In this document: piece after piece, positions 8,155 to 41,754 of the stretch | How the letters are laid out: each line of letters starts with the position of its first letter | How positions within the stretch are numbered: the first letter of the stretch is position 1 | Origin: Planctomycetota bacterium | GTDB taxonomy: Bacteria; Planctomycetota; GCA-002687715; CAIWVZ01 | Assembly (NCBI GenBank): GCA_044222185.1 | Contig: JBGANV010000001.1 | Coordinates: 1,664,001 to 1,728,000 of the forward strand | Length of the DNA: 64,000 nt | Reading direction: 5' to 3' | Notes under the pieces: generated by a model | Seen by the model: the letters and a program-made list of their open reading frames with translations, nothing else | Databases searched by the model: none | Told to the model about the DNA's origin: nothing | Translations under genes and position numbers: made by a program

Positions 8155-9102
8155 TCAATATCCGAGGGCTGGATCCACGTTCAGGCGCGGCGTCCGTCCG
8201 GCGCGGATGTCCGCGAGGGAATCGAGGAAGCTCCCCGCCGCCTCGCTCACCTCGGTGAGCGCGGAGCAGTGCGGTGACACGATGATGCGAGGGTCGCGCC
8301 ACAGTGGCGAGTCGGCGGGCAACGGCTCCGTCTCGAACACGTCCAGTGCTGCCCCGGTCAGGCAACCCGCGTCCAACGCCGCAACCATCGCGTCGTGGTC
8401 GACCACCGCGCCGCGAGCGACGTTGATCAGGAACGCGCCGCGACAGCCGCCGAGAACACGGGCATCGAACGACCGCCAGGTCTGCTCCGTCAGGGGCAGC
8501 GTGAGGATCACCCATCGCGCGGTCGAGAGCACGGCTGCCACATCGGTGAACGGGACGACCGTCTCGAATGCACCGGAAGCTCGGCCGGTGCGCGAAACCC
8601 CAACCGCGCGCGCCCCGGCGCCGCGGAACAGGCGCCCGACCGCGGCCCCGATGTCACCGGTCCCGACGACGACCGCCGTAGTTCCCTCGAAGTCGATGGG
8701 ATCGAGCTTCTGCCACCGTGCGCCAGCCTGCTGCATGAGCAGTTCAGGCATGCGCTGCGAGACGAACAGCGCGCGCGCGAGGCAGTACTCGGCGATGCGC
8801 ACGCCGAACCGGCCGCGTGTCCGGGTGAGGATGCGTCCCGTCGCCCATGGCTTGCGGAACAGGAATGCATCGACGCCCGCCCCGGTGGATTGAACCCAGC
8901 GAATCGATCCGAGCCCGCAGGACGGAGGCCGAAATCCGACGAACGTATCCGCCCAGCTCACGTCCTCGGGAGTGACGCTCTCGAGTGCACGCGCCCGGAA
9001 GGACAGCTCGGGGACGCGCGCCGCGACGAAGCGCGCCAGTTCCTCGCCGAGACGGTCCGCGACGAGGATCCGGTCCGGAGAGAACGCCGCAGGACCGGTC
9101 AC
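8155..9102 (-). CDS. D-2-hydroxyacid dehydrogenase family protein
   Basis: GAGVD, GTGDIG, INVARG, GAALDVFETEPLP, SPHCS motifs. Real start is probably GTG at 9102 (GTGA overlap with preA stop), not 10095. Confidence 0.85.
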   Translation of the reverse strand: MTGPAAFSPDRILVADRLGEELARFVAARVPELSFRARALESVTPEDVSWADTFVGFRPPSCGLGSIRWVQSTGAGVDAFLFRKPWATGRILTRTRGRFGVRIAEYCLARALFVSQRMPELLMQQAGARWQKLDPIDFEGTTAVVVGTGDIGAAVGRLFRGAGARAVGVSRTGRASGAFETVVPFTDVAAVLSTARWVILTLPLTEQTWRSFDARVLGGCRGAFLINVARGAVVDHDAMVAALDAGCLTGAALDVFETEPLPADSPLWRDPRIIVSPHCSALTEVSEAAGSFLDSLADIRAGRTPRLNVDPALGY

Positions 9103-10508
9103 GAGCCCCGGCCCTCCGCCGCCGGCGGCGAAGCGTCGTGCCTCCGGCGAGTCTCTTCGAGCCCGCCCGGCACGAAATCCCCGGAGCGTCGGACGCGATC
9201 GTCCCACGTCTCGGGGATCCTCGTCACCCGGTCCTCCACCATCGTGATGCATCCCGCCACCGGGCACACGAGCGCACACAGGTTGCAACCGATGCACTCG
9301 GATTCGTCGACGTGGGGAACGAAGCGTTCCGGAAACCCGGCAGGCGCGACGACAGGCCGCGCGGGCACGTCCTTTGGAACCCTCGTGTGACCGGCGGCAC
9401 GTGCCTCCGCCTCCGTGCGACCCGGAAGATGGATGCACTGGTGCGCTCCGTCGAGGCACGACACGTAGCAGAGCTGGCACCCGATGCAGGTCTGTGCATC
9501 GATGCGGGCCACGACGCGGTAGTTCAGGTCGAGTGCGCCCCAATCGACGAACGCGCCGACGGCGCGGCCGCGCAGGGAAGCGACGGACGGAATCCCGTGA
9601 TCGTCGAGGTAATCGCCGAGGCCGTCGATCATCTCGGAAACGATGCGGAAGCCATGGTGCATGACGGCCGTGCACACCTGCACGCAGCCAGCTCCCAGCG
9701 CGATGAATTCCGCAGCGTCGCGCCAGTTGGAGATTCCACCGATCCCCGACAACGGGACGCGCGTGTTCGGATTCCGCGCGAGCTGTCCCACCATGTGAAG
9801 GGCGATCGGCTTGATCGCAGGGCCGCAGTAGCCACCGTTCGTCGACGCCCGATCCACCCGCGGAAGCGGAACGAGTCGATCGAGATCGACTCCCATCAGG
9901 GATTTCACCGTGTTGACGAGGGCGATCGCGTGGGCACCGCCTTCGACTGCGGCCTCCCCCGGCTCGTTGATGTCCGCGACGTTCGGGCTCAGTTTCACGA
10001 TGACGGGAAGCGAAGAGTGCTCCACGACCCAGTGCGTGATCTCGGCGAGGAGACGCGGATCCTGCCCGACGACCGACCCCATTCCGCGCTCGCACATGCC
10101 GTGGGGACAGCCGAAATTCAACTCCAACCCGTCGGCTCCCGTGTCGACGGCGCGTGCCACGAGCTCACGCCACTCGGCCTTCGTCTCCGTCATGAGGGAC
10201 GCGACGACCGCGTGCTTCGGGAACCGCCGTTTGACCTCGGCGATCTCCCGCAGGTTGTCGGCCAGCGGGCGATCGGTGATGAGCTCGATGTTGTTGAGTC
10301 CCGCGACGCGCGCACCGCCGAAGTCGACGCTCGCCAGGCGACTCGACACGTTCACGATCGGGTTCCCGATGGTCTTCCAGACCGCGCCCCCCCAACCGGC
10401 GTCGAAGGCCCGCATCACCTGCCCAGCCGTGTTCGTCGGTGGCCCACTGGCGAGCCAGAACGGGTTCGGCGCCTTGATTCCGGCGAAGTCGACGCTGAGA
10501 TCAGCCAT
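9099..10508 (-). CDS. preA: NAD-dependent dihydropyrimidine dehydrogenase subunit PreA
   Basis: PNPFWLASGPPT, GWGGAVWKT, NNIELITDR, ELNFGCPHGMCERGMG, two CxxCxxCxxxC ferredoxin motifs. Confidence 0.95.
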   Translation of the reverse strand: MADLSVDFAGIKAPNPFWLASGPPTNTAGQVMRAFDAGWGGAVWKTIGNPIVNVSSRLASVDFGGARVAGLNNIELITDRPLADNLREIAEVKRRFPKHAVVASLMTETKAEWRELVARAVDTGADGLELNFGCPHGMCERGMGSVVGQDPRLLAEITHWVVEHSSLPVIVKLSPNVADINEPGEAAVEGGAHAIALVNTVKSLMGVDLDRLVPLPRVDRASTNGGYCGPAIKPIALHMVGQLARNPNTRVPLSGIGGISNWRDAAEFIALGAGCVQVCTAVMHHGFRIVSEMIDGLGDYLDDHGIPSVASLRGRAVGAFVDWGALDLNYRVVARIDAQTCIGCQLCYVSCLDGAHQCIHLPGRTEAEARAAGHTRVPKDVPARPVVAPAGFPERFVPHVDESECIGCNLCALVCPVAGCITMVEDRVTRIPETWDDRVRRSGDFVPGGLEETRRRHDASPPAAEGRGS

Positions 10509-11862
10509 GGGACACGCCTCCGAGAGTGCGCGAGATGTCTCGGGCAGCGACCTTCGCCTCCGCTACGGCGTTCACGACCTCACGCCCGCCGTTCACGCAA
10601 TCGCCGGCGGCCCAGACGCGTGGGTTGCCCGTGCGATGCGTCGCCGGGTCGACGACGATTCGGCCGCGCGGGTCCAGAGCCACGCCGGAGAACGCCAGCG
10701 CGAGCGCCGCCGCCGAGCGGTCCTGCCCGACGGCGACGACGGCGAGATCGCAGGGAATCCGCTGAGGGACGGGAGCGCCGGGGCCGAATCCATCGGAGGG
10801 AAGCACGTCCACGCTGGTGATGGGCGACGACTCGGACGCGCCGTGTCGATTGAACGCCGACACGCGCCGGCGATCGAGGATGACCACGCCCGCGTGGCGT
10901 GCCGCGTCCACTTCGTGGCGGAAGGCGGGAAGCTCGGACTCCGATCGCCTGCAGATGAGCGACACGTCGGGGACCCCTACGCCTCGAAGCTGGCGGACGA
11001 CGTCGACGGCCGTGTTGCCCCCTCCGATGACGACGGCTCTGCGCAGCCCGACGAATGCCGACCGCTCCGGTCCGCTCGTCTTCAACCGCTCGATGAACGC
11101 CGTCGCTCCGATCACGCCTGGCAGGTCCTCGCCCGGGACGCCGAGTCGGCCGTCGCCGCCGAGGCCGACTCCGAGGAACACGGCATCGAACTCTCGGACG
11201 AGGTCAGCCGCTCCAAGGCTCGGTTCCCCCGCCCGCATGGCCCCGACTTCCACGCCAAGCCGGAATTCCACACCCAGCGAGCGCACCCACTCGGCTTCGA
11301 TGCGCGCATCCTCGGCAGGAAGCTTGTAGACGGCGATCCCGTGGGTGTTGAGTCCGCCCGGTTGCGCGCGCTTCTCGAAGATCACCACCTCGTGGCCATC
11401 GAAGCGGAGTTGCGCTGCGATCGCGAGTGACGCAGGTCCCGCGCCCACGCAGGCCACGCGGCGGCCGGTCGCGGGGCCAGGCGCCTTCGCGTGCCATCCG
11501 GCGCGGACGAAGGGCTCGGTCGCCCAGCGCTGGAGCCGACCGATCTCGATCGGTGGCTTCTCCCATGCCTGGTAGACGCACGCGCCCGCGCACAGGACTT
11601 CGACGGGACACGTCCGCCCGCACGACCATCCCAGCGGGTTCGCATCCAGGATCAGGCGTGCCGCACCCTTCCGATTGCCCGTGGCGATGCGTCGAATGAA
11701 ACCGGGGACGTCGATCTCCGTCGGACAGGCCTTCACACATGGCGCATCGGCGCAGTAGAGACAGCGCAGGGCTTCGGCGACGGCGTGGCCATCGCCAAGC
11801 AGCGGTGCGTGGTCCGGAATCGGCGGCTCGGAGCGCGCGTCGGGCGTGCTGGCAGTCGTCAT
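10501..11862 (-). CDS. preT: Dihydropyrimidine dehydrogenase subunit PreT (GltD-like Fe-S/FAD oxidoreductase)
   Basis: RCLYCADAPCVKACP, CGRTCP..LC, GAGPAS, GGGNTAVD, AAGDC motifs; directly upstream of and overlapping preA. Confidence 0.9.
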   Translation of the reverse strand: MTTASTPDARSEPPIPDHAPLLGDGHAVAEALRCLYCADAPCVKACPTEIDVPGFIRRIATGNRKGAARLILDANPLGWSCGRTCPVEVLCAGACVYQAWEKPPIEIGRLQRWATEPFVRAGWHAKAPGPATGRRVACVGAGPASLAIAAQLRFDGHEVVIFEKRAQPGGLNTHGIAVYKLPAEDARIEAEWVRSLGVEFRLGVEVGAMRAGEPSLGAADLVREFDAVFLGVGLGGDGRLGVPGEDLPGVIGATAFIERLKTSGPERSAFVGLRRAVVIGGGNTAVDVVRQLRGVGVPDVSLICRRSESELPAFRHEVDAARHAGVVILDRRRVSAFNRHGASESSPITSVDVLPSDGFGPGAPVPQRIPCDLAVVAVGQDRSAAALALAFSGVALDPRGRIVVDPATHRTGNPRVWAAGDCVNGGREVVNAVAEAKVAARDISRTLGGVSHG

Positions 11863-11921
11863 CGGCGGCGGATTCTACGCGTCGGCCGACGGAGCCCCGA
11901 GACCCGGAATGACGGCCGGAA

Positions 11922-13298
11922 CTACCGCGTCGACCGTTTCACGAACGCTCCACGACCCGGCCGACCGATGAACCGGCCGCCCTCGACGATCACCTCGCCG
12001 CGCGAGAGCACCACGTCGGGCGACCCTTTGAGTTCGCGGCCTTCATAGGGGTTGTAGTCGACCCGCATGTGGTGCGTCCTCGCGCTGACGACCTGCTTGC
12101 GCTCCGGGTCGAACACGACGACGTCGGCATCGCTCCCCGGCGCCAGCGTGCCCTTTCTCGGGAACAGGCCGAAGATCTTCGCGGGCGACGTGGAAGTCAG
12201 CTCGACGAATCGGTTCAGCGAGATGTTCCCCCCGAGGACGCCGCCGTCGTGCATGAGCGCGAGGCGGGTCTCGATCCCGGGTGCACCGTTCGGGATCTTG
12301 CTGAAGTCGTCCTTCCCGAGGGTCTTCTGGTCCGCCATGCAGAAGGGGCAGTGGTCCGTCGCCACGACCTGCAGGTCGTTCAGCCGCAGGCCGCGCCACA
12401 GGTCCTTCTGCTTCGCGCGGTCGCGCAACGGCGGGCTCATGACGTACTTCGCTCCGTCGAAACCGGGCTCGTCGTAGTTCTCAGTCGACAGGAAGAGGTA
12501 CTGCGGACAGGTCTCTGCGAAGGCCTCGATCCCGCGATCGCGAGCTTCCGCGACCTTCTCCAGCGCCTCGGCCGCCGAGAGGTGGACGATGTAGACCGGC
12601 GTTCCGGCGACCTCGGCGAGGCACAGAGCGCGGTGTGTCGCTTCCGCCTCCAGTCGTGGGGGACGCGTCAGCGCGTGCCACTTCGGCGCCCGGTGGCCTC
12701 TCCGCAGCGCCTGCTCGACGAGCACGTCGATCACGGGACCATTCTCCGCGTGCATGCAGATCATCGCGCCGAGTTCGCCCGCCCGCTGGAGCGTGCGGAA
12801 GATGGACGCGTCGTCCATGAGGAACACGCCGGGATAGGCCATGAACAGTTTGAACGACGTGATCCCCTCGCGAACCATGGCGCCCATCTCGGCGCGGAGC
12901 GCGTCCGTGGATTCGCGCATGATCATGTGGAAGCCGTAATCGATCACGGCCTTCCCCTCGGCCTTGCGCATCCACGTTTCGAACGCCTGGCGCAGACTTT
13001 GCCCGAACTCGGGAATGGCGAAGTCGACGATCGTCGTCGTTCCACCGAATGCAGCCGCCACGGTCCCCGTGTGGAAGTCGTCCGCCGAGTTCGTGCCCCC
13101 GAACGGCATGTCGAGGTGCGTGTGGACGTCGATGCCGCCGGGAAGCACGTAGCGCCCCGTCGCGTCGATGGTGCGGTCCACGGTGACGGTGTCGAACGAA
13201 CGACCGATGGCCTCGATCGTCTCGCCGTCGATGAGCACGTCGGCCCGACACCGGTCGACGGCCGTGACGACCGTCCCGCCCTTGATCAGTGTGCGCAT
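11922..13298 (-). CDS. hydA: Dihydropyrimidinase (D-hydantoinase)
   Basis: PGGIDVHTH, GGTTTIVDF, SFKLFMAY, HAENG, ETCPQYL, ATDHCPF motifs. Confidence 0.95.
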   Translation of the reverse strand: MRTLIKGGTVVTAVDRCRADVLIDGETIEAIGRSFDTVTVDRTIDATGRYVLPGGIDVHTHLDMPFGGTNSADDFHTGTVAAAFGGTTTIVDFAIPEFGQSLRQAFETWMRKAEGKAVIDYGFHMIMRESTDALRAEMGAMVREGITSFKLFMAYPGVFLMDDASIFRTLQRAGELGAMICMHAENGPVIDVLVEQALRRGHRAPKWHALTRPPRLEAEATHRALCLAEVAGTPVYIVHLSAAEALEKVAEARDRGIEAFAETCPQYLFLSTENYDEPGFDGAKYVMSPPLRDRAKQKDLWRGLRLNDLQVVATDHCPFCMADQKTLGKDDFSKIPNGAPGIETRLALMHDGGVLGGNISLNRFVELTSTSPAKIFGLFPRKGTLAPGSDADVVVFDPERKQVVSARTHHMRVDYNPYEGRELKGSPDVVLSRGEVIVEGGRFIGRPGRGAFVKRSTR

Positions 13299-13311
13299 GT
13301 CGTCCCCTCGC

Positions 13312-14184
13312 TCATGGCAGTTGTTGGGTCAGCGGACCGTACGACTCCGGCCTCCGATCGCGGAAGAACTGCCACGTGCGGCGGACTTCCTCGATCATGC
13401 CCATGTCCATCTCGGCGACGACGAGTTCGTCGCGGTCCTCGGACCCCGTGGCGAGGAACTGGCCCCGTGGATCGCAGAAGTACGACGTGCCGTAGAACTT
13501 CCCGATGTTCCACGGTGGCTCCGTGCCGACGCGATTGAGTGCGCCGACGAAATATCCGTTGGCGACCGCGTGCGCCGGCTGCTCGAGTTTCCAGAGGTAC
13601 TGCGACAGGCCCGCCACCGTCGCCGACGGGTTGAAGACGATCTCGGCGCCGTTCAGCCCGAGGATGCGCGCCCCTTCCGGGAAGTGGCGGTCGTAGCAGA
13701 TGTAGACGCCGATCTTCGCGTACTTCGTCTGGAAGGTCGGGTAGCCCAGATTGCCCGGCTTGAAGAAGAACTTCTCCCAGAAGCCCGACGTGTGTGGAAT
13801 GTGGCTCTTGCGGTACTTGCCCAGGTACGTGCCGTCGGCGTCGATCACCGCGGCGCAGTTGTAGTAGAGGCCGGCCATCTCGCGCTCGTAGACGGGCACG
13901 ATCAGCACCATGCGGTGCTTGCGCGCCAGCTCGGCCATGCGCGCCGTCGTCGGGCCCGGGACCTCCTCCGCGAGGTCGCACCAGCGCGAGTCCTGGCTCG
14001 GGCAGAAGTACGGCGCATTGAAGACCTCCTGCAGGCAGAGGATCTGGACGCCTCGCTTCGCCGCCTCGTCGATGAAGGGCAACGTCTTCGCGACCATGGC
14101 GTCGCGAATCGCGTCGACGGCCCCCGTCGGATCGAACGACGGGACGCTGCACTGCACGAGACCACCAACGACCTTTCGCGGCAT
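13312..14184 (-). CDS. Beta-ureidopropionase (nitrilase / carbon-nitrogen hydrolase family)
   Basis: CLQE, GKYRKxHIP, GFWEKFFF, ICYDRHFPE, QFFRDRRPE (E-K-C triad). Start taken at MPRKV (14184). Confidence 0.92.
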   Translation of the reverse strand: MPRKVVGGLVQCSVPSFDPTGAVDAIRDAMVAKTLPFIDEAAKRGVQILCLQEVFNAPYFCPSQDSRWCDLAEEVPGPTTARMAELARKHRMVLIVPVYEREMAGLYYNCAAVIDADGTYLGKYRKSHIPHTSGFWEKFFFKPGNLGYPTFQTKYAKIGVYICYDRHFPEGARILGLNGAEIVFNPSATVAGLSQYLWKLEQPAHAVANGYFVGALNRVGTEPPWNIGKFYGTSYFCDPRGQFLATGSEDRDELVVAEMDMGMIEEVRRTWQFFRDRRPESYGPLTQQLP

Positions 14185-14286
14185 GAGAGACTCCGGATGA
14201 GCGGCGAGTCTAACGCCGCCCCGGTGAGCCTCCGACACGGGCGTGCCACGGGAGCCGCACGCCCGCGCAGGGCTCGCGGCCGCCGC

Positions 14287-17200
14287 TCACTTGGGCCGCG
14301 ACGTGGGACGTGTGTCCGTCGTGTTCGCGAGCTGCCAACGCTGCGTGGGCCAGCGATCGCACACGAAAACCAGTGCGACGCCCTGTTCCGCGGCGTCGGC
14401 CGGCACCTCGATGCTCACGACGGGAGAGGTCTCCCCGGGCGCGATCGAGGCCACCGTGTGCACGACCTCGTACGCGGGCTCCGATTCCCCGAGCGCAAGC
14501 CCCGCCAGGATCCGCCCAGGACCCGTCGGTTGATCGCCGTCGTTCTGCAACGCGAACTGGATACGCGCATGGTGCGTTGCATCGGGCGGCAGAGCGACGA
14601 ATCCGATCGGTGTGATCCGAGGCCGACGCGTCCGAACCCGGACCGACTTCAGCGTGACGCCCGCGTTCCTGGACTCGACGCGGATCTCCACCCTCTCGTC
14701 CGCAGGGCGCGACTCCGTCGACGGGGCGAGGATGCGCGTGATGCGGAGCCTCCGCTCGACGACTCCATCGATCACACCGATGGTGGGCACAGGCTCCACG
14801 AGTACACCAGGCGCCCCGTTCGTGACGGCGCTGACGTGGACCTCCAATGCAGGGTTGGCCGTCGTGTCGTGGATGAAGAGAGAAATCTCCGCACCATCCC
14901 GGTCGCAGTCGTCCAGTTCCACGTCCGTGGCGTCCACCGTGAGCGTCGTCGACCCGCCTGCCGGCGGCGCGGCGTACGTCACGGCACCCTCGGCGCCAGG
15001 CTGCGACGTCACGATGCGACTCCAGCCCGAGTGCGTCGCCTGGTCGCCACTCCGCAGCATCCAATGGCCGTCCCGCGTCACCGCGCCCGAGAGCGTCCTG
15101 GACGTGGCCTCGCGCGGCAGCACCCATTGCAACGTCCCGTCCTCGTGACCGCTGACGAACATGGCCAAGCCGCGCGAGCAGGCCGTCGTGGAGCCATGCC
15201 CGAGGAATGCCCGGCGTCGCGACGCGTCGTCCACCCACACGCTGCCATCGGCGGACACCGAGTCGAGGGCAGTCGCGCCAGCGAGGGCGACGTGGACGAC
15301 GGCCGACGTGTGTCGCCGCTCCTGGAACGTCGTTCGGCGCATGGCCAGATCGCAGACGGCGACCGTACCGTCGACGCATCCGACCGCGAGACGCGCGCCG
15401 TCAGCGGAGAACGAGAGCGAGGAGACGGCGTCGCGCAGCGTGTCCGTCTGGAAGAGCAGCGCGCCGGTCGCGACCTCGATCACGACGGCGCTCCCCTCGC
15501 CACCCACGGCGAGCCGCGTGCCGTCGTCCGAACACGCGAGGACGTGCACGGCGCCGACGGGAACGGGCAGGTCCAGGAGACGAACGGCTGCGGAATCCAC
15601 GTCGACGATTGCAACGCGGCCGCGCGAAAGGCCCACGGCCACGCCCGCCTTCGCGCCGACGCGTGCCAGCGCCGTGAGGCGATCCTGGATGACGAGCGAC
15701 TTCCGCGGCATACCCGTCCTGGCGGCGAACGTTGCGAGCGTCCCGTCCGCCGTCGCGGCGACGACACGATCGTCAGCTTCGAGGTGAGCCAATCCGACGA
15801 TCTCCGCGTCGTGGTCCATCGTGTGGATCCAGGCCAGCCGCTGGTGGGGCGGCCCGTCCCGCTGCTCGGTGAACCAGAAACACGAGAGCACTCCGTCCCC
15901 GCTCCCTGCGACGACGCTTCCCTGGTGACTGAGGACCTCGACGGCGGTGATCGGGCGGATGACCTCGGGCAGCGTGCGCAGGACTCGCCCCGTGAGGTTG
16001 TCCAACAGTTTGATGGTGCGATCCGACGAGCAGGTCGCGATGACGCGGCCGTCCGGGCGCGGAGACGCCGCGTAGGCGGTCAACAGATGCGGCCGCACGG
16101 TCCAAAGCGGCGTGCCGTCCTCGGAAGACCACGCGCGAATCGTGCGGTCGGCGGAGGCGGACGTGATGACGCGGCCGTCGGGGGAGATGCCAATTCCCTC
16201 CACGCTTCCCTCGTGCCCTTGCAGCGTGCGGACCAGTTCCCCGCCCGGCAGCGCCCAGACCTGGATGAGTCCGCTCAGCGACCCTCCGGCGATCCAGGAA
16301 GCATGGGGACCGAACGCGATCGTGTGCACGTGATCGAGGGCGGGCCCACGGTGGATCGTTCGCACGAGACGGCCGTCGTTGGGATCCCACAGGCGCACCG
16401 TGTTGTCGGCTGCGGCGCTGGCGAGCGTGGTGCCATCACGCGAGAAGACGAGTGCCTTCAGGTCGGAGCGATGGCCCTCGAGCGTGCGCAGGAGTTCGTG
16501 GCTTTCGACGTCCCAGATGCGAACGGTCCGGTCTGCCGACCCGGACACGATCCACCGACCGGTCGGATCGAACGCCACGGCGGAGACGGGAGCCTGGTGG
16601 CCAACGAGCGTCGCCACGCGGCGGCCGTCGTCGACGCGCCACAGGCCCACCGTGCCATCCGCCGAGCCCGTCGCGATGAACGTCGACCGGGGATGGAACG
16701 CCACCGACGTCACCGTCTGCGTGTGCCCGACACAGACGACCTTCACCAGGCCCGACTCGGCGTCCCAGATTCGCGCCGTCTGGTCGCCCGAAGCCGATGC
16801 GAGAAGGCGGCCGTCGGGACTCCAGCACACGGCGAATACGTCCGCCTGATGACCTCGATCGAGGTCGTAGGCTGGTGCGGGCTCCGACTCCCAGAGGCAC
16901 GCCGTTCCGTCGACGCCGCAACTCACGAAGTGCTTGCCGGTCGGCGAAGCCGCGAGCGCCGTGACGCCGCCGTTGTGCGCGCGCCAGGCTGCGGTTCGCG
17001 TCCACGCCTCCCCGCTCGCGCCGTCGGACCGCATCCACGTCGCAACGAGGCCGTCGGCCGTGCCCGTCGCGGCATGGCGGCCATCGTCCCAGCCTGCCGC
17101 AGCACTCACCCAGCTCGTATGCCCGCCGAGCGGAGCGCCGCCCACGCCGTTTCGCCACGGGATCGCGCGCTTGTCCGAACCGCCCGTGAGATAGCCGGCG

Positions 17201-17787
17201 CCGCTGAGCGGCGCGATCGCGTTCACGGGCCCCTCGTGCGCCTTGCGTCGCACGGGCGCGGAAGCTCCGTCGAGCGCATGCTCGATCACGCTTCCATCCT
17301 CGCATCCAGCGACGAGACCCGCAGACGCGGAGCCGCTGCCGACGAACGCCAACGCCGTGCCGACGACCGGTGCCTTCGCCACGACCGTCTTCGCGGCCCC
17401 GGACGCGGCGTCCCACAACGCGATGCCCGAGGTCTCCGACGCCGTCGCCAGCCACGCTCCCGTCGAATCCACGGCAAGCTTCACCGGACCGTCCGTCGCA
17501 ACCTGTATGACGACGGGATCGGCCTTCGCCGCCACGTCGATGATGCGCACGACGCCGTTCGAGAGCCCGACCGCAACGCGACCGGACGGCAACCGCGCGA
17601 GTGACGTCACGGCCCACTCGAATCGCACCTGCGGCTCCGCCTGCGATTCGGTCACCGTCCACACGACGATCCGCCGATCGACCGCGAGCGCGACGTGATC
17701 CGAATCCAGCCACACGGCGTCAACCACGGGCGCTTCGAAGGGCCCCACGGCCCTGATCCGCGCCATCTGCGGTGCCCGCTCCTCCAC
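14287..17787 (-). CDS. Large WD40-repeat protein with C-terminal Ig/CARDB-like domains
   Basis: Many GH...V..VAFSPDG..LASxSxDxT.RxW repeats; FALQNDGDQPTG..IAPGET CARDB-like tail; no signal peptide. Confidence 0.85.
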   Translation of the reverse strand: MEERAPQMARIRAVGPFEAPVVDAVWLDSDHVALAVDRRIVVWTVTESQAEPQVRFEWAVTSLARLPSGRVAVGLSNGVVRIIDVAAKADPVVIQVATDGPVKLAVDSTGAWLATASETSGIALWDAASGAAKTVVAKAPVVGTALAFVGSGSASAGLVAGCEDGSVIEHALDGASAPVRRKAHEGPVNAIAPLSGAGYLTGGSDKRAIPWRNGVGGAPLGGHTSWVSAAAGWDDGRHAATGTADGLVATWMRSDGASGEAWTRTAAWRAHNGGVTALAASPTGKHFVSCGVDGTACLWESEPAPAYDLDRGHQADVFAVCWSPDGRLLASASGDQTARIWDAESGLVKVVCVGHTQTVTSVAFHPRSTFIATGSADGTVGLWRVDDGRRVATLVGHQAPVSAVAFDPTGRWIVSGSADRTVRIWDVESHELLRTLEGHRSDLKALVFSRDGTTLASAAADNTVRLWDPNDGRLVRTIHRGPALDHVHTIAFGPHASWIAGGSLSGLIQVWALPGGELVRTLQGHEGSVEGIGISPDGRVITSASADRTIRAWSSEDGTPLWTVRPHLLTAYAASPRPDGRVIATCSSDRTIKLLDNLTGRVLRTLPEVIRPITAVEVLSHQGSVVAGSGDGVLSCFWFTEQRDGPPHQRLAWIHTMDHDAEIVGLAHLEADDRVVAATADGTLATFAARTGMPRKSLVIQDRLTALARVGAKAGVAVGLSRGRVAIVDVDSAAVRLLDLPVPVGAVHVLACSDDGTRLAVGGEGSAVVIEVATGALLFQTDTLRDAVSSLSFSADGARLAVGCVDGTVAVCDLAMRRTTFQERRHTSAVVHVALAGATALDSVSADGSVWVDDASRRRAFLGHGSTTACSRGLAMFVSGHEDGTLQWVLPREATSRTLSGAVTRDGHWMLRSGDQATHSGWSRIVTSQPGAEGAVTYAAPPAGGSTTLTVDATDVELDDCDRDGAEISLFIHDTTANPALEVHVSAVTNGAPGVLVEPVPTIGVIDGVVERRLRITRILAPSTESRPADERVEIRVESRNAGVTLKSVRVRTRRPRITPIGFVALPPDATHHARIQFALQNDGDQPTGPGRILAGLALGESEPAYEVVHTVASIAPGETSPVVSIEVPADAAEQGVALVFVCDRWPTQRWQLANTTDTRPTSRPK

Positions 17788-17855: not shown

Positions 17856-18908
17856 TCAGCGCAAGCCCTCCAGGCAGCGCTTGAGGAACCCGAGCCGCGC
17901 GTCCACCTCCCGGCTCACGATCGTGTCCGGGTGCGCCTTCTTCAGAGCTTCCAGGTCTTCGATCACGTGTTCCCCGTCGTGAAGCGTCTGGAATCCACGA
18001 GTGGCCACGGACCGGACGTCCTTCTGCGCCTGGATGAGCCGGCGCGTCGTTTCGCTCCCCGCCATGGCTTCCTGAACGTTCTTCACGCGCTCCGCGAGAG
18101 GACCGCCTGCGACGACACGGACGATGGACTCGCAGCGCTCCGTCGCACCGAGCCAGTCACCCGCACGATAGGTTGCCTCGGCCGCACGAACCCGATTCTC
18201 GATCAACTGCTCGACCCAGCGGGTCACGTCCTGCATCGAGACCGTGGACGACGTCGCGTCCGTCGTGCGCGACTCGGCTGGCCCGGACTCGGCCGTCGAC
18301 GAACCCGCAGCGCGCGACTCGGCGCCTCGGCCTGCCAGCGTGCGTGCCGCCAGGAGATCGTCGGCCAGGATCGCCGTGCGAATCTCCTGTGTCTCCGCGG
18401 GCCAGTCGAACATCGGGACGGGCACCGCCCCCGGCAACGCCGCGCGGATCATCTCCTCGTTCAACCCCGATGGATGGCCCGCGTAGGCCACGTTGCCCGT
18501 CGCGTCCACCAGGACGGCGAACGGCAGGTCGAACACGTTGAATGGTCCCGCCAGTTCGAAGTCCGCGTCATAGGCGTAGGCGTAGCGCACCTTGCGCAGT
18601 TTCACCCACTGCTCCGTGTTCTCCTTGTAGCCGCCGGTCACGCCGACGATCGAGAGGCCCCGCCTGCCGTACTTGTCCTGCAAGGCGTTCAGCTTGGGAA
18701 CCTCTTCACCGCAAGGCGGTCACCAATACATGAAGAACTCGAGGAGCAGGGTCCGGCCCCGGAACTCCGCGAGTGTCTTCGCGCGCGTGTTGGCCCAGTC
18801 GTGCAGCCGTGCCGGGGGCAATGGGCTGCCGACGAGTTGCGCGGGCATGGCACAGGTCACCGCGATCACCGCGGCGCAAACGGCCGCTCCCTTCCGAAAA
18901 CCGATCAT
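17856..18908 (-). CDS. TlpA/redoxin-family thiol-disulfide oxidoreductase, probable selenoprotein (UxxC, in-frame TGA at 18720..18722) with C-terminal helical domain
   Basis: ORFs 18720..19073 and 17856..18683 are in the same frame. Joined they read ...LAEFRGRTLLLEFFMYW-[TGA]-PPCGEEVPKLNALQDKYGRRGLSIVGV...LPFAVLVDATGNV, the TlpA pattern. ATG 18908 has an AAGGA RBS and a signal peptide. Confidence 0.85.
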
Positions 18909-19024
18909 GCCGACGTCCTTCCGTGGTTCGAGCGCGACCGTGGAGGCAGTCCGGGTGCCGAGTCGACCCACAGGCGGGGATTGTAGGGAGGCAGCCGCGC
19001 TCCGATCAACGTAAGCTTGCCGCC

Positions 19025-19963
19025 ATGCCGGAACTTCCGGACGTCGTCGTCTACGTCGAAGCGATCGAAGCACGGCTCGCCGGGCGCGTCATCGAACGCG
19101 TGCGCGTCCTGAGCCCGTTCGTCGTGCGGACGGTCGAACCGCCGATCCTCGCGCTGGAGTCGCGCCGGGTCCTCGGGGTGCGACGACTCGGGAAACGCAT
19201 CGTGATCGCAGTGGAAGGGGACCTGTTCCTCGTCGTTCACCTGATGATCTCCGGGCGCTTCCGGTGGGAGCGACCCGACGCCAAGGTCAACCGCCGGCTA
19301 TGGCTCGCGACGTTCACCTGCGAAACGGGGATGCTGGTGCTGACCGAGGCGAGCACGAAGCGACGCGCCTCGATCCACGTGGTCGACGGGGCGGCAGCAC
19401 TCGCGCTGCACGACCCGGGCGGCCAGGATGTCCTCATCGCGACGCAGGATTCGTTCCGCGCGGCCCTCCGGCGCGAGAACCGGACACTCAAGCGAGCGCT
19501 CACCGATCCGCGCCTCTTCGACGGCATCGGGAACGCGTACTCCGACGAGATCCTCCACGCGGCGCGCCTTTCGCCACTCGCGCTCACGCGTTCGCTCGAC
19601 GACGAAGAAGCCGAGCGGCTGCGCGTCGCGGCGACCGCGACGCTCACGCGCTGGACCCAGCGCCTGCGAACCGAAACCGGAGCCGACTTCCCGACGAAGG
19701 TCACGGCCTTCCGCCCGGACATGGCCGTCCACGGCCGGTACGGAAAGGCGTGCCCGGTCTGCGACACGCTCGTCCAGCGCATCGTCTACGCCGAGAACGA
19801 GGCGAACTACTGCCCCCGTTGTCAGACTCGAGGGAAGCTCCTCGCCGATCGTTCGCTCTCGCGGCTGCTCCACGAGGATTGGCCGAAGACGATCGACGAA
19901 CTCGAATCGCAGATGCCGGCCGCGACGCCCCAGATGCGAAATCGGCCTACGGGCGACCGCTGA
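19025..19963 (+). CDS. Fpg/Nei family DNA glycosylase
   Basis: N-terminal MPELPDV, RRLGKR, HLMISGR, GIGNAYSDEIL (H2TH), CPVC...CPRCQ zinc finger. Confidence 0.93.
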   Translation: MPELPDVVVYVEAIEARLAGRVIERVRVLSPFVVRTVEPPILALESRRVLGVRRLGKRIVIAVEGDLFLVVHLMISGRFRWERPDAKVNRRLWLATFTCETGMLVLTEASTKRRASIHVVDGAAALALHDPGGQDVLIATQDSFRAALRRENRTLKRALTDPRLFDGIGNAYSDEILHAARLSPLALTRSLDDEEAERLRVAATATLTRWTQRLRTETGADFPTKVTAFRPDMAVHGRYGKACPVCDTLVQRIVYAENEANYCPRCQTRGKLLADRSLSRLLHEDWPKTIDELESQMPAATPQMRNRPTGDR

Positions 19964-25494: not shown

Positions 25495-27903
25495 TCAGCG
25501 CGGGCCGTCGATGACGGCCTCACGCAAGCCCTTCGGTGACGCCGAAAGACCGACTGCCAGCCGGGTCTGAGCACCGGCCGTGGACTCGAACCGGAGCCAT
25601 CGCGCGGGATGTCCTGCGACGGTGACGATGAGCGTGTGCTCGCCTTCCGCGACGTTGCGGATTCGTGCCGCGCCGTTCGTGATCGCGAAAGGCTCGCCAT
25701 CGAGAATCGCGAGTCCCCGACCGCACGCCCGTCCCTCGCCGTCGGTGACATCCACACGGATCTCGCCATCGGGGAGGCACGCGTGATCGGGCGGCGTCGA
25801 CGAGGTCCACAGGACGAGAGGCAAGCCCTCGCCATCCCGGATCGCCATCGGAGTCCCGGGCGGAACCCGTGTCGGCGCGATGCTCGCCACGCCCTCGGCG
25901 TCGGTACGCCGACTGACGACACCGCGCTCGGTTCCGAACTCGACGGAGGCGTCCGCGACCGGTGCGCCCCTCGAGTCGACGACGACGATCGCCCGCATGG
26001 GCGCCTCGCGGTGCGCCGGAACGGCAGGCCAACGCGCTGCGACGTCCAGGCATTCGCCAGGCCGCCGGAGGCCGCGCACGGCGTGGGTCACACGCTCGCT
26101 TCCGCAGCCGAGCGCGATCAGCGGCTCGCCGTCGAGAGGCAACGGGATCGGACGTTCGTGCAGGACGTCCTCCGTCACGTCGCGCTCCCGCGCGCCGACG
26201 ACGAGACTGGCCCAGGCACCGTCCGGCGCGTCGTTCCCGCATCGCACCGTCACGCGAGGCCGCTCGAAGAGCTCCAGGGATACCATCCTCGGTCGAAGCC
26301 CTGGCTCCACGGAGAGTGCGTCAGGCGCGATCGCGAACGGCGTCTCCGCGACGTCGTCGTTTCGGATCTCGTAGGTTCCGACCGGCAGCCACGCGACCGC
26401 CGTGGCGTCGTCCTCCACCTGCGTTCGGACGACCGCGCCGTCCGGACACGCGATGAGAACGGTGAGCCCCCGGGTCAGCGGTGCGCCGGCGGACTTCGAG
26501 CGGAACTCGACCCGGGCCGAAGCGCCGTCGTTGGTCCCAGGTGAGCGCTCGCCCGCCTCCGCGGCCGGACGCCGCAGAACGACCTGGATGATCCCATCGT
26601 CGCCCATCGCGCCAGCGAAGCGCGTGACGCCGGGTGCGAACCCGGCGCCGCGGACGATCGCGGAGTCGGCCTCCGCATCCACGCCGGAGAGCCCGGCCAG
26701 CCCGTCGGAATTCGTCACGGCGGTCACGGATGTGAGGACCTCCATGGCGCCCGTGACGGCGTCGACTCGAACGTCCTGGACCGGACGTCCCAACGTGTCG
26801 GTGACGCGCAGGTGCACGAGTCCGGCCCGACGCATCCGGACCGGGAACGGAGCGATGGACCCCGAGCTGACCACGGTGGCGTACCCCGAAGCCTGGGCCA
26901 TGCATGCGAGGGGGCCGGCCGGGACATCCGCGATCGACATCCGCAGCCACCCGTCGGCGCCCGAAACGGCCGTGCGCAGGACGTGTGGCGCATGCGCCCG
27001 CTCCGCCGGCTCCTCGATCACACTCAGCGCGGCGCCCGGAATCGCCACGCCGGTGACCGCGTCGACGACACGCGTGACGAGCGAGCGATGGCGACCGAGC
27101 TCATCCATGGGCCCGCTGCACGGGAACACGTCGTCGACGTCGCGCGCCTCGAGCACGCGCACCTCCGCCGCCCCGATGGGCTGGACGGAGATTGGAGGCT
27201 CGTCCTGCGTCGGCGTGGATCTCACGGGCTCGCCGGGTGAAACGACGCCTCGGCCGCTGGGCGAAGGTGTCCGATCCGTGCGTGCCGCGAGAATGGCACC
27301 ACCAATCCCGAGGATGGCGAAGGTCATCAGCGCGACCCGAACGAGCCCCACTGCCGCCACACCGACGGGCAGCGGCCTCAGGAGCAGGAACGCCCCGCGA
27401 CGCCGTCCCGGACCGAGCGTCGCGTCGAGTCGCGACCGCATGAGCGCCAATCCCCGCTTCAGGCGTGTGCGAACGGTTTCCGTGGGGATCCCCAGCGCCG
27501 CGGCGATTCGCCGCGGCGGAAGGTCGCGCTCGAACCGCAACAGGAGGACGTCTCGGTAGTGCGGGTCGAGTTGGAGCAGGGCCTCCACGACCTGACGGCG
27601 CACGGACTCACGCTCGGCGAGGTCCAGTGCCGATGGCACGCACTCGGGCCGTGCCGCGCTGCGCTCGACCTCCGCGCCGCGGCGGTGCCGGGCCGCCGCT
27701 CGCAGTGCAAAACGACCGGCCACGCGGGCAAGCCAGGCCTTCGCCGTCGCCGCGCGCAACGAGCCCTGGCGGATCAGGGCCAGCCAGGTGTCCTGCACGG
27801 CGTCGTCGCCGTCGCGATCCACCGCCATCCGCGCGGCGATGCGGCGCAGGAGTGCGTCGTGCGCGAGAAGCCCGTGGAGGTCGAGAAGCGGTTCGGTGGA
27901 CAT
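25495..27903 (-). CDS. ECF sigma factor with membrane-anchored C-terminal extension (carboxypeptidase-regulatory-like beta domains)
   Basis: DDAVQDTWL, AWLARV (region 2); LDPHYRDVLLLRF..IAAALGIPTETVRTRLKRGL (region 4); TM segment; repeated 'V.D..G.PV.DA.V...T...G.A' modules. Confidence 0.85.
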   Translation of the reverse strand: MSTEPLLDLHGLLAHDALLRRIAARMAVDRDGDDAVQDTWLALIRQGSLRAATAKAWLARVAGRFALRAAARHRRGAEVERSAARPECVPSALDLAERESVRRQVVEALLQLDPHYRDVLLLRFERDLPPRRIAAALGIPTETVRTRLKRGLALMRSRLDATLGPGRRRGAFLLLRPLPVGVAAVGLVRVALMTFAILGIGGAILAARTDRTPSPSGRGVVSPGEPVRSTPTQDEPPISVQPIGAAEVRVLEARDVDDVFPCSGPMDELGRHRSLVTRVVDAVTGVAIPGAALSVIEEPAERAHAPHVLRTAVSGADGWLRMSIADVPAGPLACMAQASGYATVVSSGSIAPFPVRMRRAGLVHLRVTDTLGRPVQDVRVDAVTGAMEVLTSVTAVTNSDGLAGLSGVDAEADSAIVRGAGFAPGVTRFAGAMGDDGIIQVVLRRPAAEAGERSPGTNDGASARVEFRSKSAGAPLTRGLTVLIACPDGAVVRTQVEDDATAVAWLPVGTYEIRNDDVAETPFAIAPDALSVEPGLRPRMVSLELFERPRVTVRCGNDAPDGAWASLVVGARERDVTEDVLHERPIPLPLDGEPLIALGCGSERVTHAVRGLRRPGECLDVAARWPAVPAHREAPMRAIVVVDSRGAPVADASVEFGTERGVVSRRTDAEGVASIAPTRVPPGTPMAIRDGEGLPLVLWTSSTPPDHACLPDGEIRVDVTDGEGRACGRGLAILDGEPFAITNGAARIRNVAEGEHTLIVTVAGHPARWLRFESTAGAQTRLAVGLSASPKGLREAVIDGPR

Positions 27904-35323: not shown

Positions 35324-37684
35324 ATGCGCGCCACGCTGGTCTTCCCACCCTCGCTGTGCCTGCCCAATACGCTCTACTTCGCGCTTCCCGTGCTCGCCGG
35401 TGCGCTGAAAAGAGCCGGTCATCAGGCGCGACTGCTCGACCTCAACCTCGTCGCCGCCGACAGATTCCTCACTCCGGAACGCACGGAGTCGTTGATCTCG
35501 CGCGCCCGACGGTACGGGGCGTCGCTCTCGACGAGCGTCGGCCCTTTCGCTGCGCGGACGTTCGCCCGATCCCTGGCGGCCGCCGAAAAAACACTGGTGG
35601 CGGCCCCCACGTCCAAGGCGAATCTGCGCGACACCGCGACCTTCTTCGATGCCGCTGGATTCCACCGCGACTTTTGGACGATCGTCGACGCGCTCGGGTT
35701 CGTCTACCAGCTCGATCCGGTGCTGTCGCCGCACCGACCGGACTTTCTTTCCACACTGCTGAAAAACCAGCACGACGACCCGTGGACCCCGCTGACCGAG
35801 CTTCATGAAGAACTGGTCGACGACGTGATCCGGGGAGATCCTGGGCTCATCGGCATCTGCATCGCCTTCCCGGAACAGTCGGCCGAGGCGATCCGGCTCG
35901 CTCGACACGTCCGCCGACTCCGACCGGACGTGCACATCTGCGTCGGGGGTCCCTTGGTCTCGACGTACGCGAACGCGTGGCTCGGGTCGGGCGAGCTCTT
36001 CCGGTGGGTCGATTCGTTCTGCATGGGCGATGGTGAGGCGTGCATCGTCGAGCTGTGTGACGCCCTCGAAGGTCGCCGCCCGATGGAATCCGTCACGAAC
36101 CTCGTGCGCGCAAACCGCGACGGCGGCGTCGTCATGCCGAGGAACGGCCGCGTCGTCACCCCCATGTCCGAGGTGCCGCTGCCGGACTTCGATTCGTTCG
36201 ACTGGTCCCTGGAGTTCCTGCCCAAACCACTCTGGCCGCTGATGCTGGCGCGAGGCTGCTACTGGGGCCGTTGCACGTTCTGCTCCATCGGATGGCGAGA
36301 GAATTTCCAGAAGGCGCCGAACGACAACGTTCGCCGCGACGTCGTCGACCTGGTCCGCCGGCTGGGCGCTCGCTGGATCCAGGTTCAGGACTCGAGCATG
36401 CCGCCCGCAGCGGCCCTCTCGCTCGCGCGCATCATGAAGCAGGAGCGACTCGAAGCCTATTGGGTCGGAGGCATGAAACCGGACGTGTGCTTCCTGGACG
36501 AGTCCTATTGCCACGAGCTTGCGGCCGGAGGGTGTCGGTCACTGCTCATGGGGATCGAGTCGGTCAATCAGCGCGTGCTCGACCGGATGGACAAGGGTTA
36601 CCGGGTCGCCGACCTCCCCAGAATGCTCACGAACCTCCGGACGGCTGGGATCTCGGTCGAGCCGCTGTGGTTCGTCGGTTTCCCGGGCGAGACGCGCACC
36701 GAGGCCCTGACCACCGTGCGCTGGCTCTACGAGAATCGCTCCCGCTATGGCCTCACGGCGTTCGTCGGCGAATACCTCCTGCACCCCGACACCGCCGTCT
36801 ACGAAGACCCGAAGCGATTCGGACTGGAATTGCACGGCACGCACAACGACACGGTTCACTACACGGCTCGCGAAGGAATGCAGCCCGAGGAACTGCACCG
36901 TCTCGAAGTGATGCTGTCCGGGATGAACAACCGGACCCTGACGTGCAGCGGCTCGCACATGCCCCATCTCGCGGAGCGCGGTCTCGAGGTGCGAGGGATC
37001 GGTCGACCCGCGTCGCTGCCGGAGCCTGCCGTCGCGTTCTGCACCGAGCTCATGCCAGAGAGCGGCGCGCCGCCGGAGTGTTTCACACGCGCTGGCCGCC
37101 AGGCCCTCTTCGTTTCCGACTTCGGCTTCCGTCAGCGACTGGAAGCAGCGTTCCCGGCGATCCGCGACGAATGGGCGGCCGTGCCTCCCGCGCAGCGCGG
37201 CATCTGGACCGAAGAAGGCGCCGCGGACGGCTACTGGGGAACGATCCCCTTGTTCGCGGCTGGACATCGCGTCGCCGCCACCTGCGACCTCGCCCCGACG
37301 ACGGCGGCGATCCTCGCGACGGTGCCTGAGCTCTACACGGCGGGATTCTCGGTCGTGGGTGCGCGCAGTCGGCTCCCGCGGCACTGTGGCGAAGACCGGA
37401 CGCTCCTGCGCTGCCATCTCGCGATCAAGATCCCCGAAGGCTCGCGCTTCGACGTCGACGGCCTGGACGTCCGATGGGTCGAAGGCAAGACGGTGGTCTT
37501 CGACGACACTCTCCCCCACTGGGTGCGCAACGACTCCGATGAAGAGAAAGTCATCCTCCTCGTCGATTTCCGCACGCCGCCCGCCATCGCAGGCGACCGG
37601 ACGCCGTCGCCCGAACAGGTGGCGCGAGATCGCCAGTACTACTCGCGCCTCTTCCCCGAGTGGAACGCCCAGGCGGCCCAGTGA
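35324..37684 (+). CDS. B12-binding radical SAM protein fused to a C-terminal aspartyl/asparaginyl beta-hydroxylase-like (Fe/2OG) domain
   Basis: LVFPP...LAGALK, VGGP, GDGE (B12-binding domain); RGCYWGRCTFC; GIES.NQRVLDRMDKG; GFPGET; then FS...HCG...LRCHL...W.EGK..VFDDT.PH.V.N in the same frame with no stop. Confidence 0.85.
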   Translation: MRATLVFPPSLCLPNTLYFALPVLAGALKRAGHQARLLDLNLVAADRFLTPERTESLISRARRYGASLSTSVGPFAARTFARSLAAAEKTLVAAPTSKANLRDTATFFDAAGFHRDFWTIVDALGFVYQLDPVLSPHRPDFLSTLLKNQHDDPWTPLTELHEELVDDVIRGDPGLIGICIAFPEQSAEAIRLARHVRRLRPDVHICVGGPLVSTYANAWLGSGELFRWVDSFCMGDGEACIVELCDALEGRRPMESVTNLVRANRDGGVVMPRNGRVVTPMSEVPLPDFDSFDWSLEFLPKPLWPLMLARGCYWGRCTFCSIGWRENFQKAPNDNVRRDVVDLVRRLGARWIQVQDSSMPPAAALSLARIMKQERLEAYWVGGMKPDVCFLDESYCHELAAGGCRSLLMGIESVNQRVLDRMDKGYRVADLPRMLTNLRTAGISVEPLWFVGFPGETRTEALTTVRWLYENRSRYGLTAFVGEYLLHPDTAVYEDPKRFGLELHGTHNDTVHYTAREGMQPEELHRLEVMLSGMNNRTLTCSGSHMPHLAERGLEVRGIGRPASLPEPAVAFCTELMPESGAPPECFTRAGRQALFVSDFGFRQRLEAAFPAIRDEWAAVPPAQRGIWTEEGAADGYWGTIPLFAAGHRVAATCDLAPTTAAILATVPELYTAGFSVVGARSRLPRHCGEDRTLLRCHLAIKIPEGSRFDVDGLDVRWVEGKTVVFDDTLPHWVRNDSDEEKVILLVDFRTPPAIAGDRTPSPEQVARDRQYYSRLFPEWNAQAAQ

Positions 37685-41527: not shown

Positions 41528-41754
41528 GCGGTGCGCGGTCCGCCCGCGTCCCATGGCGATGGGGGCGCGGAGAGGCGGCGCATTGTATGCGTTTCTGCGG
41601 ATTCGACCTGTCGGAGGCGTGAGTGCTCAACCATCCGCGGATCTGCAGGTTTTACCGAGGCTCTCGGACGCGGCGTCGTGCGGTTGCCACCGATCGCGCC
41701 CCCGAATACTCTCCACCTTTCACGCCGCCTGCCGCGGCGAACCGAGGTCCATCC

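Follow-up and report, generated by a model that had tools for sequence, protein, structure and literature searches.

A candidate selenoprotein of the TlpA/ResA type with a helical C-terminal domain and a conserved downstream hairpin pair in Planctomycetota

Background

Proteins in which selenocysteine (Sec, U) takes the place of the first cysteine of a CxxC motif have been catalogued since 2005-2006 in Prx-like, TlpA-like (cd02966) and Redoxin families (PMC1794560, Zhang et al. 2006; PMC13188914, a 2026 review), and the available portions of these two sources present such UxxC proteins as thioredoxin-fold proteins with Cys-containing homologues, recognized by comparative genomics only. The gene dealt with here resides on the minus strand of a 64,000-nucleotide stretch of a Planctomycetota bacterium genome (assembly GCA_044222185.1, contig JBGANV010000001.1, positions 1,664,001 to 1,728,000; the whole stretch is called the window below), and resembles the catalogued proteins in all these respects. 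Sequence comparisons indicate that it is very probably a single gene for an exported thiol-disulfide oxidoreductase of the TlpA/ResA type, in which a UGA-encoded Sec replaces the nucleophilic Cys of the WCxxC motif. Compared by description only, and as far as the available portions of the sources go, the subfamily to which it belongs differs from the catalogued families in the addition of a helical C-terminal domain of ~185 residues, and in lacking a canonical bacterial selenocysteine insertion sequence (SECIS).

An ability of Planctomycetes to decode Sec is indicated by the complete selA/selB/selD sets which are reported, in the available portion of PMC4807772, for the planctomycete strains P1 and P2, for Gemmata obscuriglobus and for Isosphaera pallida. 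Two split 'thiol-disulfide isomerase-like thioredoxin' candidates of strain P1 appear in Table S9 of the same paper, each marked 'SECIS present: no'. Compared by table entries and not by sequences, these candidates resemble the window gene in belonging to the same phylum, in being annotated as two genes, in having a closest match with Cys at the position in question, and in the failure of bSECISearch, at default settings, to find a SECIS.

The kind of protein is already known. New are the two-domain, planctomycete-wide subfamily, which falls outside curated models, the extent of its misannotation, and a conserved pair of hairpins in the mRNA. No description of the subfamily was found in the literature searched, which covers few subscription journals; the available portion of the BSepDB paper mentions neither Planctomycetes nor TlpA.

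One reading frame interrupted by a single TGA

17856..18908, minus strand: complete coding sequence of the proposed selenoprotein, Sec at codon 63 (sequence and translation; orthologues are 316-353 residues long, with the TGA at codon 62-68)
18720..18722, minus strand: in-frame TGA, proposed selenocysteine codon U63 (TGA in 11/11 planctomycete orthologues, TGT in the Anaerolineales homologue L012)
18711..18725, minus strand: redox motif W62-U63-P64-P65-C66, at the head of helix 64-83 (counterpart of WCxxC or WSxxC in full-length homologues)

The frame starts at the ATG at 18908 and ends at the terminator TGA at 17856-17858, encoding 350 residues, and is interrupted by one internal TGA only, found at 18722..18720 in the context LLEFFMYW-U-PPCGEEVPKLNAL (residues around U63, LLEFFMYW-U-PPCGEEVPKL). 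ORF listing returns two separate open reading frames (ORFs) on the minus strand, one at 18720..19073 (117 residues, GTG start), the other at 17856..18683 (275 residues, TTG start), and the gene is stored in the public protein library as two proteins, P0026 (62 residues, corresponding to residues 1-62) and P0002 (275 residues, corresponding to residues 76-350). The original prediction, made from the DNA alone, held that the two listed ORFs are one frame broken solely by the TGA at codon 63, and that this TGA occupies the place of the first Cys in the W-C-x-x-C motif of TlpA proteins. The translation agrees with the former, and the latter is borne out by the alignment of YW-U-PPC with the WCxxC or WSxxC of homologues.

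Conservation of the TGA

Relatives were sought as DNA in the genome contigs of 185,579 species representatives, by using a peptide pattern that was derived from a six-sequence alignment and is situated in the IPHAVLVD strand, well away from the TGA. Twenty loci were returned, each analyzed with ~20 kb around it; they are those sharing this pattern, not a full census, and the source organism of the window was not among the representatives matched. Eleven of them (L001-L011) are orthologues, all from Planctomycetota, 27-43% identical to the window protein, and 316-353 residues long where complete (L010 is cut by the contig end). TGA is found at the same codon in 11/11 orthologues (YW*GPC, codon 62-68), one of which comes from Engelhardtia mirabilis Pla133 (NZ_CP036287.1), a cultured strain with a complete genome; with the window gene, TGA is present in 12/12 subfamily members available as DNA. 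The Sec motif is U-P-P-C in the window protein, U-G-P-C in all 11 planctomycete orthologues. TGT is found at the aligned codon (WCPPC) of L012, a homologue from Anaerolineales. The remaining eight loci are generic TlpA paralogues with Cys at this position, replaced by Gly in L020. The position alternates, in other words, between TGA in the planctomycete members and TGT in L012, and the scenario that all relatives carry Cys, TGA being found in the window only, is excluded by the 11 TGA-bearing orthologues. Of the members seen, the window gene diverges most, its identity to the orthologues being 27-43%.

Both sides of the TGA evolve under constraint. The ratio of nonsynonymous to synonymous substitution rates (dN/dS) ranges from 0.25 to 0.55 upstream and from 0.25 to 0.78 downstream of the TGA, and is <1 on both sides in 7/7 pairs compared; purifying selection acts on both parts of the frame. 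TGA is an ordinary terminator in these genomes, ending 30/37 window ORFs and 7/10 complete orthologues, which shows that it has not been reassigned genome-wide. Since TGA is kept at the same codon and selection acts on both sides of it, neither nonsense mutation, nor sequencing error, nor the presence of two genes can explain the pattern. The conserved TGA can be explained by selenocysteine or, with less likelihood, by some other dedicated sense reading.

Proteins were compared with an exhaustive library of 1.84 billion representatives, a word-indexed search having given only 3 matches; 31 matches had E <= 1e-30. Full-length homologues carry CxxC or SxxC at the TGA position. Among the matches listed, the window's own pieces excluded, 55 of 149 representatives carry the C-terminal domain as judged by BLAST. 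Most of these clusters (43/55, among the matches listed) are proteins of 228-270 residues which start at query residue 67-98, directly past the motif, as is typical when a gene caller resumes downstream of a stop. The other 12/55 are full length and, by a scripted reading of the matches listed, have CxxC (7), CxxS (1), AxxC (1) or GxxS (1), two lacking the Trp; the SxxC forms P0009 and P0044 fell outside the 55-cluster set. What appears to be a planctomycete periplasmic redox family is hence stored in databases as N-terminally truncated proteins devoid of the active site in 43/55 clusters (among the matches listed), under the sole name found for family entries, 'hypothetical protein'. That standard gene callers would split such genes, as originally predicted, is exemplified by P0026 and P0002 and by the 43 clusters beginning right past the motif. 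The wider inference drawn there, that of an exported UxxC thioredoxin-fold selenoprotein, passes the comparative test of TGA against Cys and is supported.

A thioredoxin fold followed by a helical domain

18471..18833, minus strand: TlpA/ResA-like thioredoxin-fold domain, residues 26-146 (Pfam, Foldseek, invariant P129)
17859..18416, minus strand: family-specific all-helical C-terminal domain, residues 165-350, ~185 residues (domain model)
18237..18302, minus strand: Ala/Ser/Thr-rich low-confidence linker, residues 203-224 (predicted local distance difference test, pLDDT, 58-68)

The protein was modelled by AlphaFold2 with a 63-sequence alignment, with a pLDDT of 91.4 and a predicted template modelling score (pTM) of 0.87 over the full length. 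Modelled U63 sits directly before helix 64-83 of the thioredoxin fold. Residues 26-146, spanning the TGA, match the Pfam families AhpC-TSA (1.8e-15), Redoxin (3.9e-13) and Thioredoxin_8; scores for PF00578 and PF08534 are above the gathering cut-offs (57.4 vs. 26, and 49.9 vs. 26.6, respectively). The best matches of the N-terminal domain to PDB structures found by Foldseek are ResA, CcmG/DsbE, DipZ and Etrx2, with template modelling (TM) scores to the target of 0.7-0.8. P129 (codon 18522-18524) is invariant in 63/63 aligned sequences, and corresponds, by alignment and in position only, to the residue of the cis-proline loop. The thioredoxin fold is followed in the model by eight helices (residues 171-349). 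The notion that the fold is kept across the TGA and continues into a helical domain holds, as judged by the Pfam matches and the AlphaFold2 model.

ResA from Bacillus subtilis, CcmG/DsbE and TlpA, to which the window protein is structurally closest, share with it a WCxxC-type motif at the N-terminus of a helix, a conserved proline in the cis-Pro place, and a signal for export at the N-terminus, putative in the window protein. The latter differs in having the proposed Sec in place of Cys and an additional helical domain, and in scoring far below the cut-offs of the corresponding NCBIfam equivalogs (54.3/170 bits for ResA NF002854, 45.2/230 for TlpA NF047696, 32.2/123 for DsbE TIGR00385); similar sub-cut-off scores were obtained for four orthologues and two Cys forms. 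A further difference is that no cytochrome-c or Sco/Cox biogenesis gene neighbours the window gene.

When modelled alone, the C-terminal domain again folds into 8 helices, with a pLDDT of 93.1. A comparison with PDB gave no match with E < 0.3, TM scores being <= 0.29; the best among the weak matches are BamD/TPR-like, and the modelled domain may be called TPR-like only in the loosest sense. No consistent Pfam family covers the domain in 48 members analyzed. The 22-residue Ala/Ser/Thr-rich linker is an insert between helices two and three of the domain, found in the window protein alone and absent from homologues.

Two NCBIfam models, NF041054 (ResA-like WAxxUGC, 354 residues) and NF041382 (VPGUxxT type 1, 349 residues), similarly describe two-domain (seleno)proteins of ~350 residues. 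The window protein scores 41.4 bits against the WAxxUGC_long model NF041054 (cut-off 300), its motif being YWUPPC (YWUGPC in the orthologues), and has no match to NF041382 (cut-off 350 bits); its C-terminal domain matches neither model. Weak matches are found in relatives, to NF041054 in 28/48 and to NF041382 in 11/48 (best E-value 3.9e-8), and run past the thioredoxin domain; that of P0007 to NF041382 spans residues 172-326, in the C-terminal domain. Scores of 35-60 bits against cut-offs of 300-350, as well as the position and context of Sec (W-U-x-P-C here), set the subfamily apart from both models. The weak matches of relatives suggest that the family belongs in a wider superfamily of ~350-residue (seleno)proteins combining thioredoxin and helical domains. 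With all NCBIfam models scoring below their cut-offs, the genes of the family will go on being split by automatic annotation.

Expression and export signals

18916..18922, minus strand: Shine-Dalgarno-like GGAAGGA, 7 nt before the ATG (direct sequence reading)
18980..19009, minus strand: sigma-70-like promoter match TTGATC-18-TACAAT (consensus match only; in the divergent intergenic region common to the fpg/nei gene)
18837..18908, minus strand: putative signal peptide of the general secretion type, residues 1 to ~24, MIGFRKGAAVCAAVIAVTCAMPAQ (sequence features)

One sigma-70-like site was found in the divergent intergenic region, against 0.1 expected. A ribosome-binding site and a signal peptide had both been assigned to the part of the gene upstream of the TGA. 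The former is readily seen in GGAAGGA; the latter is recognizable by appearance only, in R5 and K6 followed by a hydrophobic run. Residues 1-20 of the model have low pLDDT (50-53), and analogous N-termini, with AxAQ-like ends, are found in 11/11 orthologues. By these features, extracytoplasmic export of the protein is predicted.

RNA structure downstream of the UGA

18653..18705, minus strand: hairpin 1 (HP1), long irregular stem-loop (extent in the 98-nt fold; consensus columns 24-65 correspond to 18658-18699, the window core stem to 18661-18687)
18631..18649, minus strand: hairpin 2 (HP2), 7-bp stem with invariant loop CGUGA (columns 74-92; within the GGC-GUG-ACC codons for G89-V90-T91); HP2-type hairpin sequence GGCGUGACC

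A small hairpin noticed by eye just 3' of the UGA (18693-18715) had been proposed as the SECIS. This claim fails: the hairpin has a folding energy of -3.1 kcal/mol and a z-score of 0.05, 98/200 shuffles fold equally well, and the 66 nt following the UGA in the window have z -0.39. Nor is there any excess of structure in this place across the family, the proximal 45 nt after the TGA having z-scores from -0.87 to +2.14 relative to synonymous recodings, with z > 0 in 11/12 members. The hairpin 18693-18715 (minus strand) was accordingly rejected as an element, and so was a long proximal stem (columns 8-46), pairing PCG with ELQ codons, which looked good in the window, L001, L002, L004 and L011, is not conserved in L005-L010, and does not exceed synonymous recodings in stability (z -0.87 to +2.14). 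RNAalifold detected no conserved proximal pairing near the UGA in the family alignment.

Structure is found further downstream. Windows of 11 codons were compared, at 52 offsets in the 12 sequences, with recodings which preserve each protein and its codon usage. The strongest of the 52 positions, +9 codons, coincides with HP1 (mean z -1.92; 9/12 below -1.5), the second, +21 codons, with HP2 (mean z -1.74; 8/12 below -1.5). At the HP1 position, nine Cys-type TlpA genes used as control have a mean z of about -0.15, 1/9 being below -1.5. Both hairpins are found unprompted by RNAalifold on 110 nt.

The cells of HP1 are paired in 76.5% of cases, a value reached by 1/500 shuffles, and the apical stem shifts in register and sequence between species; the window core (18661-18687) folds at -11.0 kcal/mol, with z -2.43. 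HP2 has a stem of 7-9 bp and energies of -9 to -15 kcal/mol across the family, the window hairpin (-9.1 kcal/mol) having its loop start 77 nt after the UGA. Paired cells amount to 91.7%, against 21-56% in slid controls. Two pairs occur in three Watson-Crick types each, making 6 double-sided changes, and 0/500 shuffles reach the paired fraction, the number of double-change cells or the covariation score observed. Covariation runs between the third, synonymous position of one codon and the first position of the codon for a variable residue, and rare AUU/GUU codons occur in HP2 exactly where the pairing partner is A. Among the 37 amino-acid columns invariant in 11 complete genes, the only four-fold-degenerate ones with a single codon are G89, V90 and T91, that is, the GGC-GUG-ACC codons forming the loop and the closing pairs of HP2. 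Given the frozen codons and the covariation, HP2 looks like a sequence-specific RNA element. Further variation was observed in L001-L004 and L006, where HP2 is lengthened to 9 bp (GGUUCUCGG/CCGA-U-GAACC), lies 70-95 nt after the TGA, and has one bulged U on the 3' arm. A bulged U is also a feature of the Escherichia coli fdhF SECIS.

Comparison with the SECIS consensus

The consensus for bacterial SECIS elements given in the available portion of PMC13188914 has a loop of 3-9 nt, a stem of 4-16 bp, a minimum free energy <= -7.5 kcal/mol, G within the first two positions of the loop, with G or U as the usual next nucleotide, and a distance of 16-37 nt from UGA to loop; elements outside the consensus are said there to exist, and to be uncharacterised. 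HP2 satisfies the consensus in loop, stem, G-position and energy, and is off in distance alone. It resembles canonical elements of the E. coli fdhF type in the 5-nt loop whose second and third positions are G and U, the 7-9-bp stem, the energy of -9 to -15 kcal/mol and, in L001-L004 and L006, the bulged U; it differs in that the loop lies 77 nt after the UGA, as opposed to 16-37, the interval being filled by HP1. Folding of HP1 would leave an unpaired stretch of ~35 nt between UGA and HP2 loop in the consensus, and of ~24 nt in the window fold. A two-hairpin, distal SECIS, in which SelB would recognize HP2 and HP1 would shorten the effective path to ~24-35 nt, is conceivable on these grounds, though it must be regarded as tentative. 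If it existed, it would represent a distinct architectural class of bacterial SECIS, and would explain both why bSECISearch reports 'no SECIS' for planctomycete candidates resembling thiol-disulfide isomerases, and why a widespread family stays split in databases (43/55 clusters truncated). The conserved hairpin pair, in one member of which the loop is invariant, offers a concrete candidate SECIS that departs from the 16-37-nt consensus and can be put to the test.

Weighing the alternatives

Several results weigh against the selenoprotein interpretation, or against the hairpins as the signal for Sec insertion. Neither selA, selB, selD nor tRNA-Sec was seen in the 64-kb window and in the part-scanned ~20-kb flanks of the 20 loci (tRNA scans covered the window and 12/20 loci, Pfam scans 36 window ORFs and 35/73 flank ORFs); no tRNA gene was found in the window, no tRNA-Sec in the 12/20 loci scanned, and no second selenoprotein candidate in the window or in the flanks of the loci. 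Neither HP1 nor HP2 fits the consensus spacing of 16-37 nt, HP1 loops beginning 37-42 nt after the UGA and lacking a conserved G. Relative to dinucleotide shuffles, the 98-nt region of the window is unexceptional (z -0.29; L008 and L002 have z -3.08 and -2.11, respectively), as is window HP2 taken alone (z -0.96), and the shuffle controls overstate independence, the 12 sequences being related, L001-L004 closely. The comparison with Cys-form orthologues covers one gene as DNA, L012, which has no hairpin at the places of HP1 and HP2. The lack of Sec genes in the sequence scanned and the off-canonical spacing would both suit translation of UGA as a standard amino acid, either Cys, delivered by a tRNA-Cys that resembles tRNA(Sec) and bears a UCA anticodon, or else Trp or Cys through near-cognate read-through, yielding a CxxC or WxxC enzyme free of selenium. 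UGA-reading tRNA-Cys variants exist, and conserved TGA, open frame and two-sided selection look identical under any sense reading. Against this stand the precise coincidence of the codon with the catalytic Cys of a redox motif, in a classic Sec/Cys alternation; the retention of TGA in 12/12 subfamily members, although TGY is one mutation away; the use of TGA as main terminator in these genomes; and a conserved RNA structure with an invariant loop, which suits a dedicated recoding factor and not leaky read-through. Translation as a standard amino acid is, on balance, improbable. Still less credit can be given to the TGA as a true stop, in a pseudogene, through a sequencing error, or between two genes, one for an exported 62-residue peptide, the other for a cytoplasmic protein of 275 residues starting at TTG 18683. 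Standard ORF calling and the public library split the gene in just this way, and most homologous entries are 228-270-residue proteins beginning past the motif; yet the same break occurs at the same codon in 11 other genomes encoding proteins only 27-43% identical, with dN/dS < 1 on both sides, and an error restricted to the window is excluded by these orthologues. On its own, the product of the downstream piece would be devoid of signal peptide, strand 1 and the entire active site, in a fold modelled as one unit with pLDDT 91, and the starts called scatter over residues 67-98, as arbitrary first ATGs would.

A selenoprotein could also be made with HP1 and HP2 unrelated to Sec insertion, the two acting in mRNA stability or in pausing during export, and the real SECIS being weak, poorly conserved and nearer to the UGA. 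The canonical spacing (16-37 nt in the available portion of PMC13188914) would favour this arrangement; several members allow weak pairings to be drawn near the UGA, and some Cys-type TlpA paralogues show small hairpins near IGxS/T codons (best of 10 offsets). The proximal 45 nt are, however, less structured than synonymous recodings in 11/12 members (z > 0) and contain no conserved pairing, HP1 and HP2 are the two outliers among 52 positions scanned, and three successive synonymous sites do not vary in the HP2 loop. This arrangement is judged unlikely, somewhat more so than the tentative distal SECIS. The existence of a Sec residue at codon 63, itself held to be very probable, is common to both.

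Proposed mode of action

In the proposed selenoprotein, SelB and Sec-tRNA(Sec) would recode the UGA under the direction of the RNA structure that follows it. In the likeliest arrangement HP1, long, variable and starting 0-20 nt after the UGA, would serve as a spacer bringing HP2 into reach, and the CGUGA loop of HP2, in which the second position is G and the third U, as in SECIS loops known from bacteria, would be the element recognized. The product would be exported through the Sec translocon into the periplasm. By homology to ResA, TlpA, CcmG and Etrx it should be a periplasmic reductase, and by analogy with TlpA, ResA and CcmG it may be kept reduced by a membrane reductase of the CcdA/DsbD type. 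Sec would attack and C66 resolve, disulfides or sulfenic acids being reduced in a periplasmic client, possibly chosen through the helical domain. The planctomycete selenoproteome would gain in this way an exported two-domain UxxC enzyme, and Engelhardtia mirabilis Pla133, cultured and completely sequenced, provides a host for testing.

Rfam and genomic neighbourhood

Rfam searches over the window gave 0 matches at gathering thresholds, and chance-level matches only at E up to 10 over 18560-18780. The gene lies between the divergent fpg/nei gene and a gene for a 1166-residue protein with many WD40 repeats (14287-17787, minus strand). The latter is located 68 nt downstream on the same strand, no terminator-like site being found in between, and may be co-transcribed with the selenoprotein gene. 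No neighbour, the WD40 gene included, is conserved across the 9 loci examined (35/73 flank ORFs scanned); M1 and S9 peptidases, GDSL hydrolase, sulfatase and Lhr helicase genes are found at other loci. No sel, CcdA/DsbD or cytochrome-c biogenesis gene adjoins the gene in the window.

Other regions of the window deserve mention. Four consecutive genes at 9099-14238 (minus strand) resemble a reductive pyrimidine-catabolism cluster, encoding two dihydropyrimidine-dehydrogenase-like subunits (DHO_dh with Fer4, and Fer4_20 with Pyr_redox_2), an amidohydrolase (dihydropyrimidinase-like) and a CN_hydrolase protein (beta-ureidopropionase-like). Fusions of a Ser/Thr protein kinase to a C-terminal FGE-sulfatase domain (formylglycine-generating-enzyme-like) are encoded at 38867-41554 (minus strand) and 54715-58107 (plus strand), and at 4251-6467 of L004. 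A 786-residue fusion of a B12-binding radical-SAM enzyme to an aspartyl/asparaginyl beta-hydroxylase domain is encoded at 35324-37684 (plus strand). The 802-residue protein encoded at 25495-27903 (minus strand) joins sigma-70 region 4 to CarboxypepD_reg and Big_1 domains, an unusual sigma-factor-like fusion.

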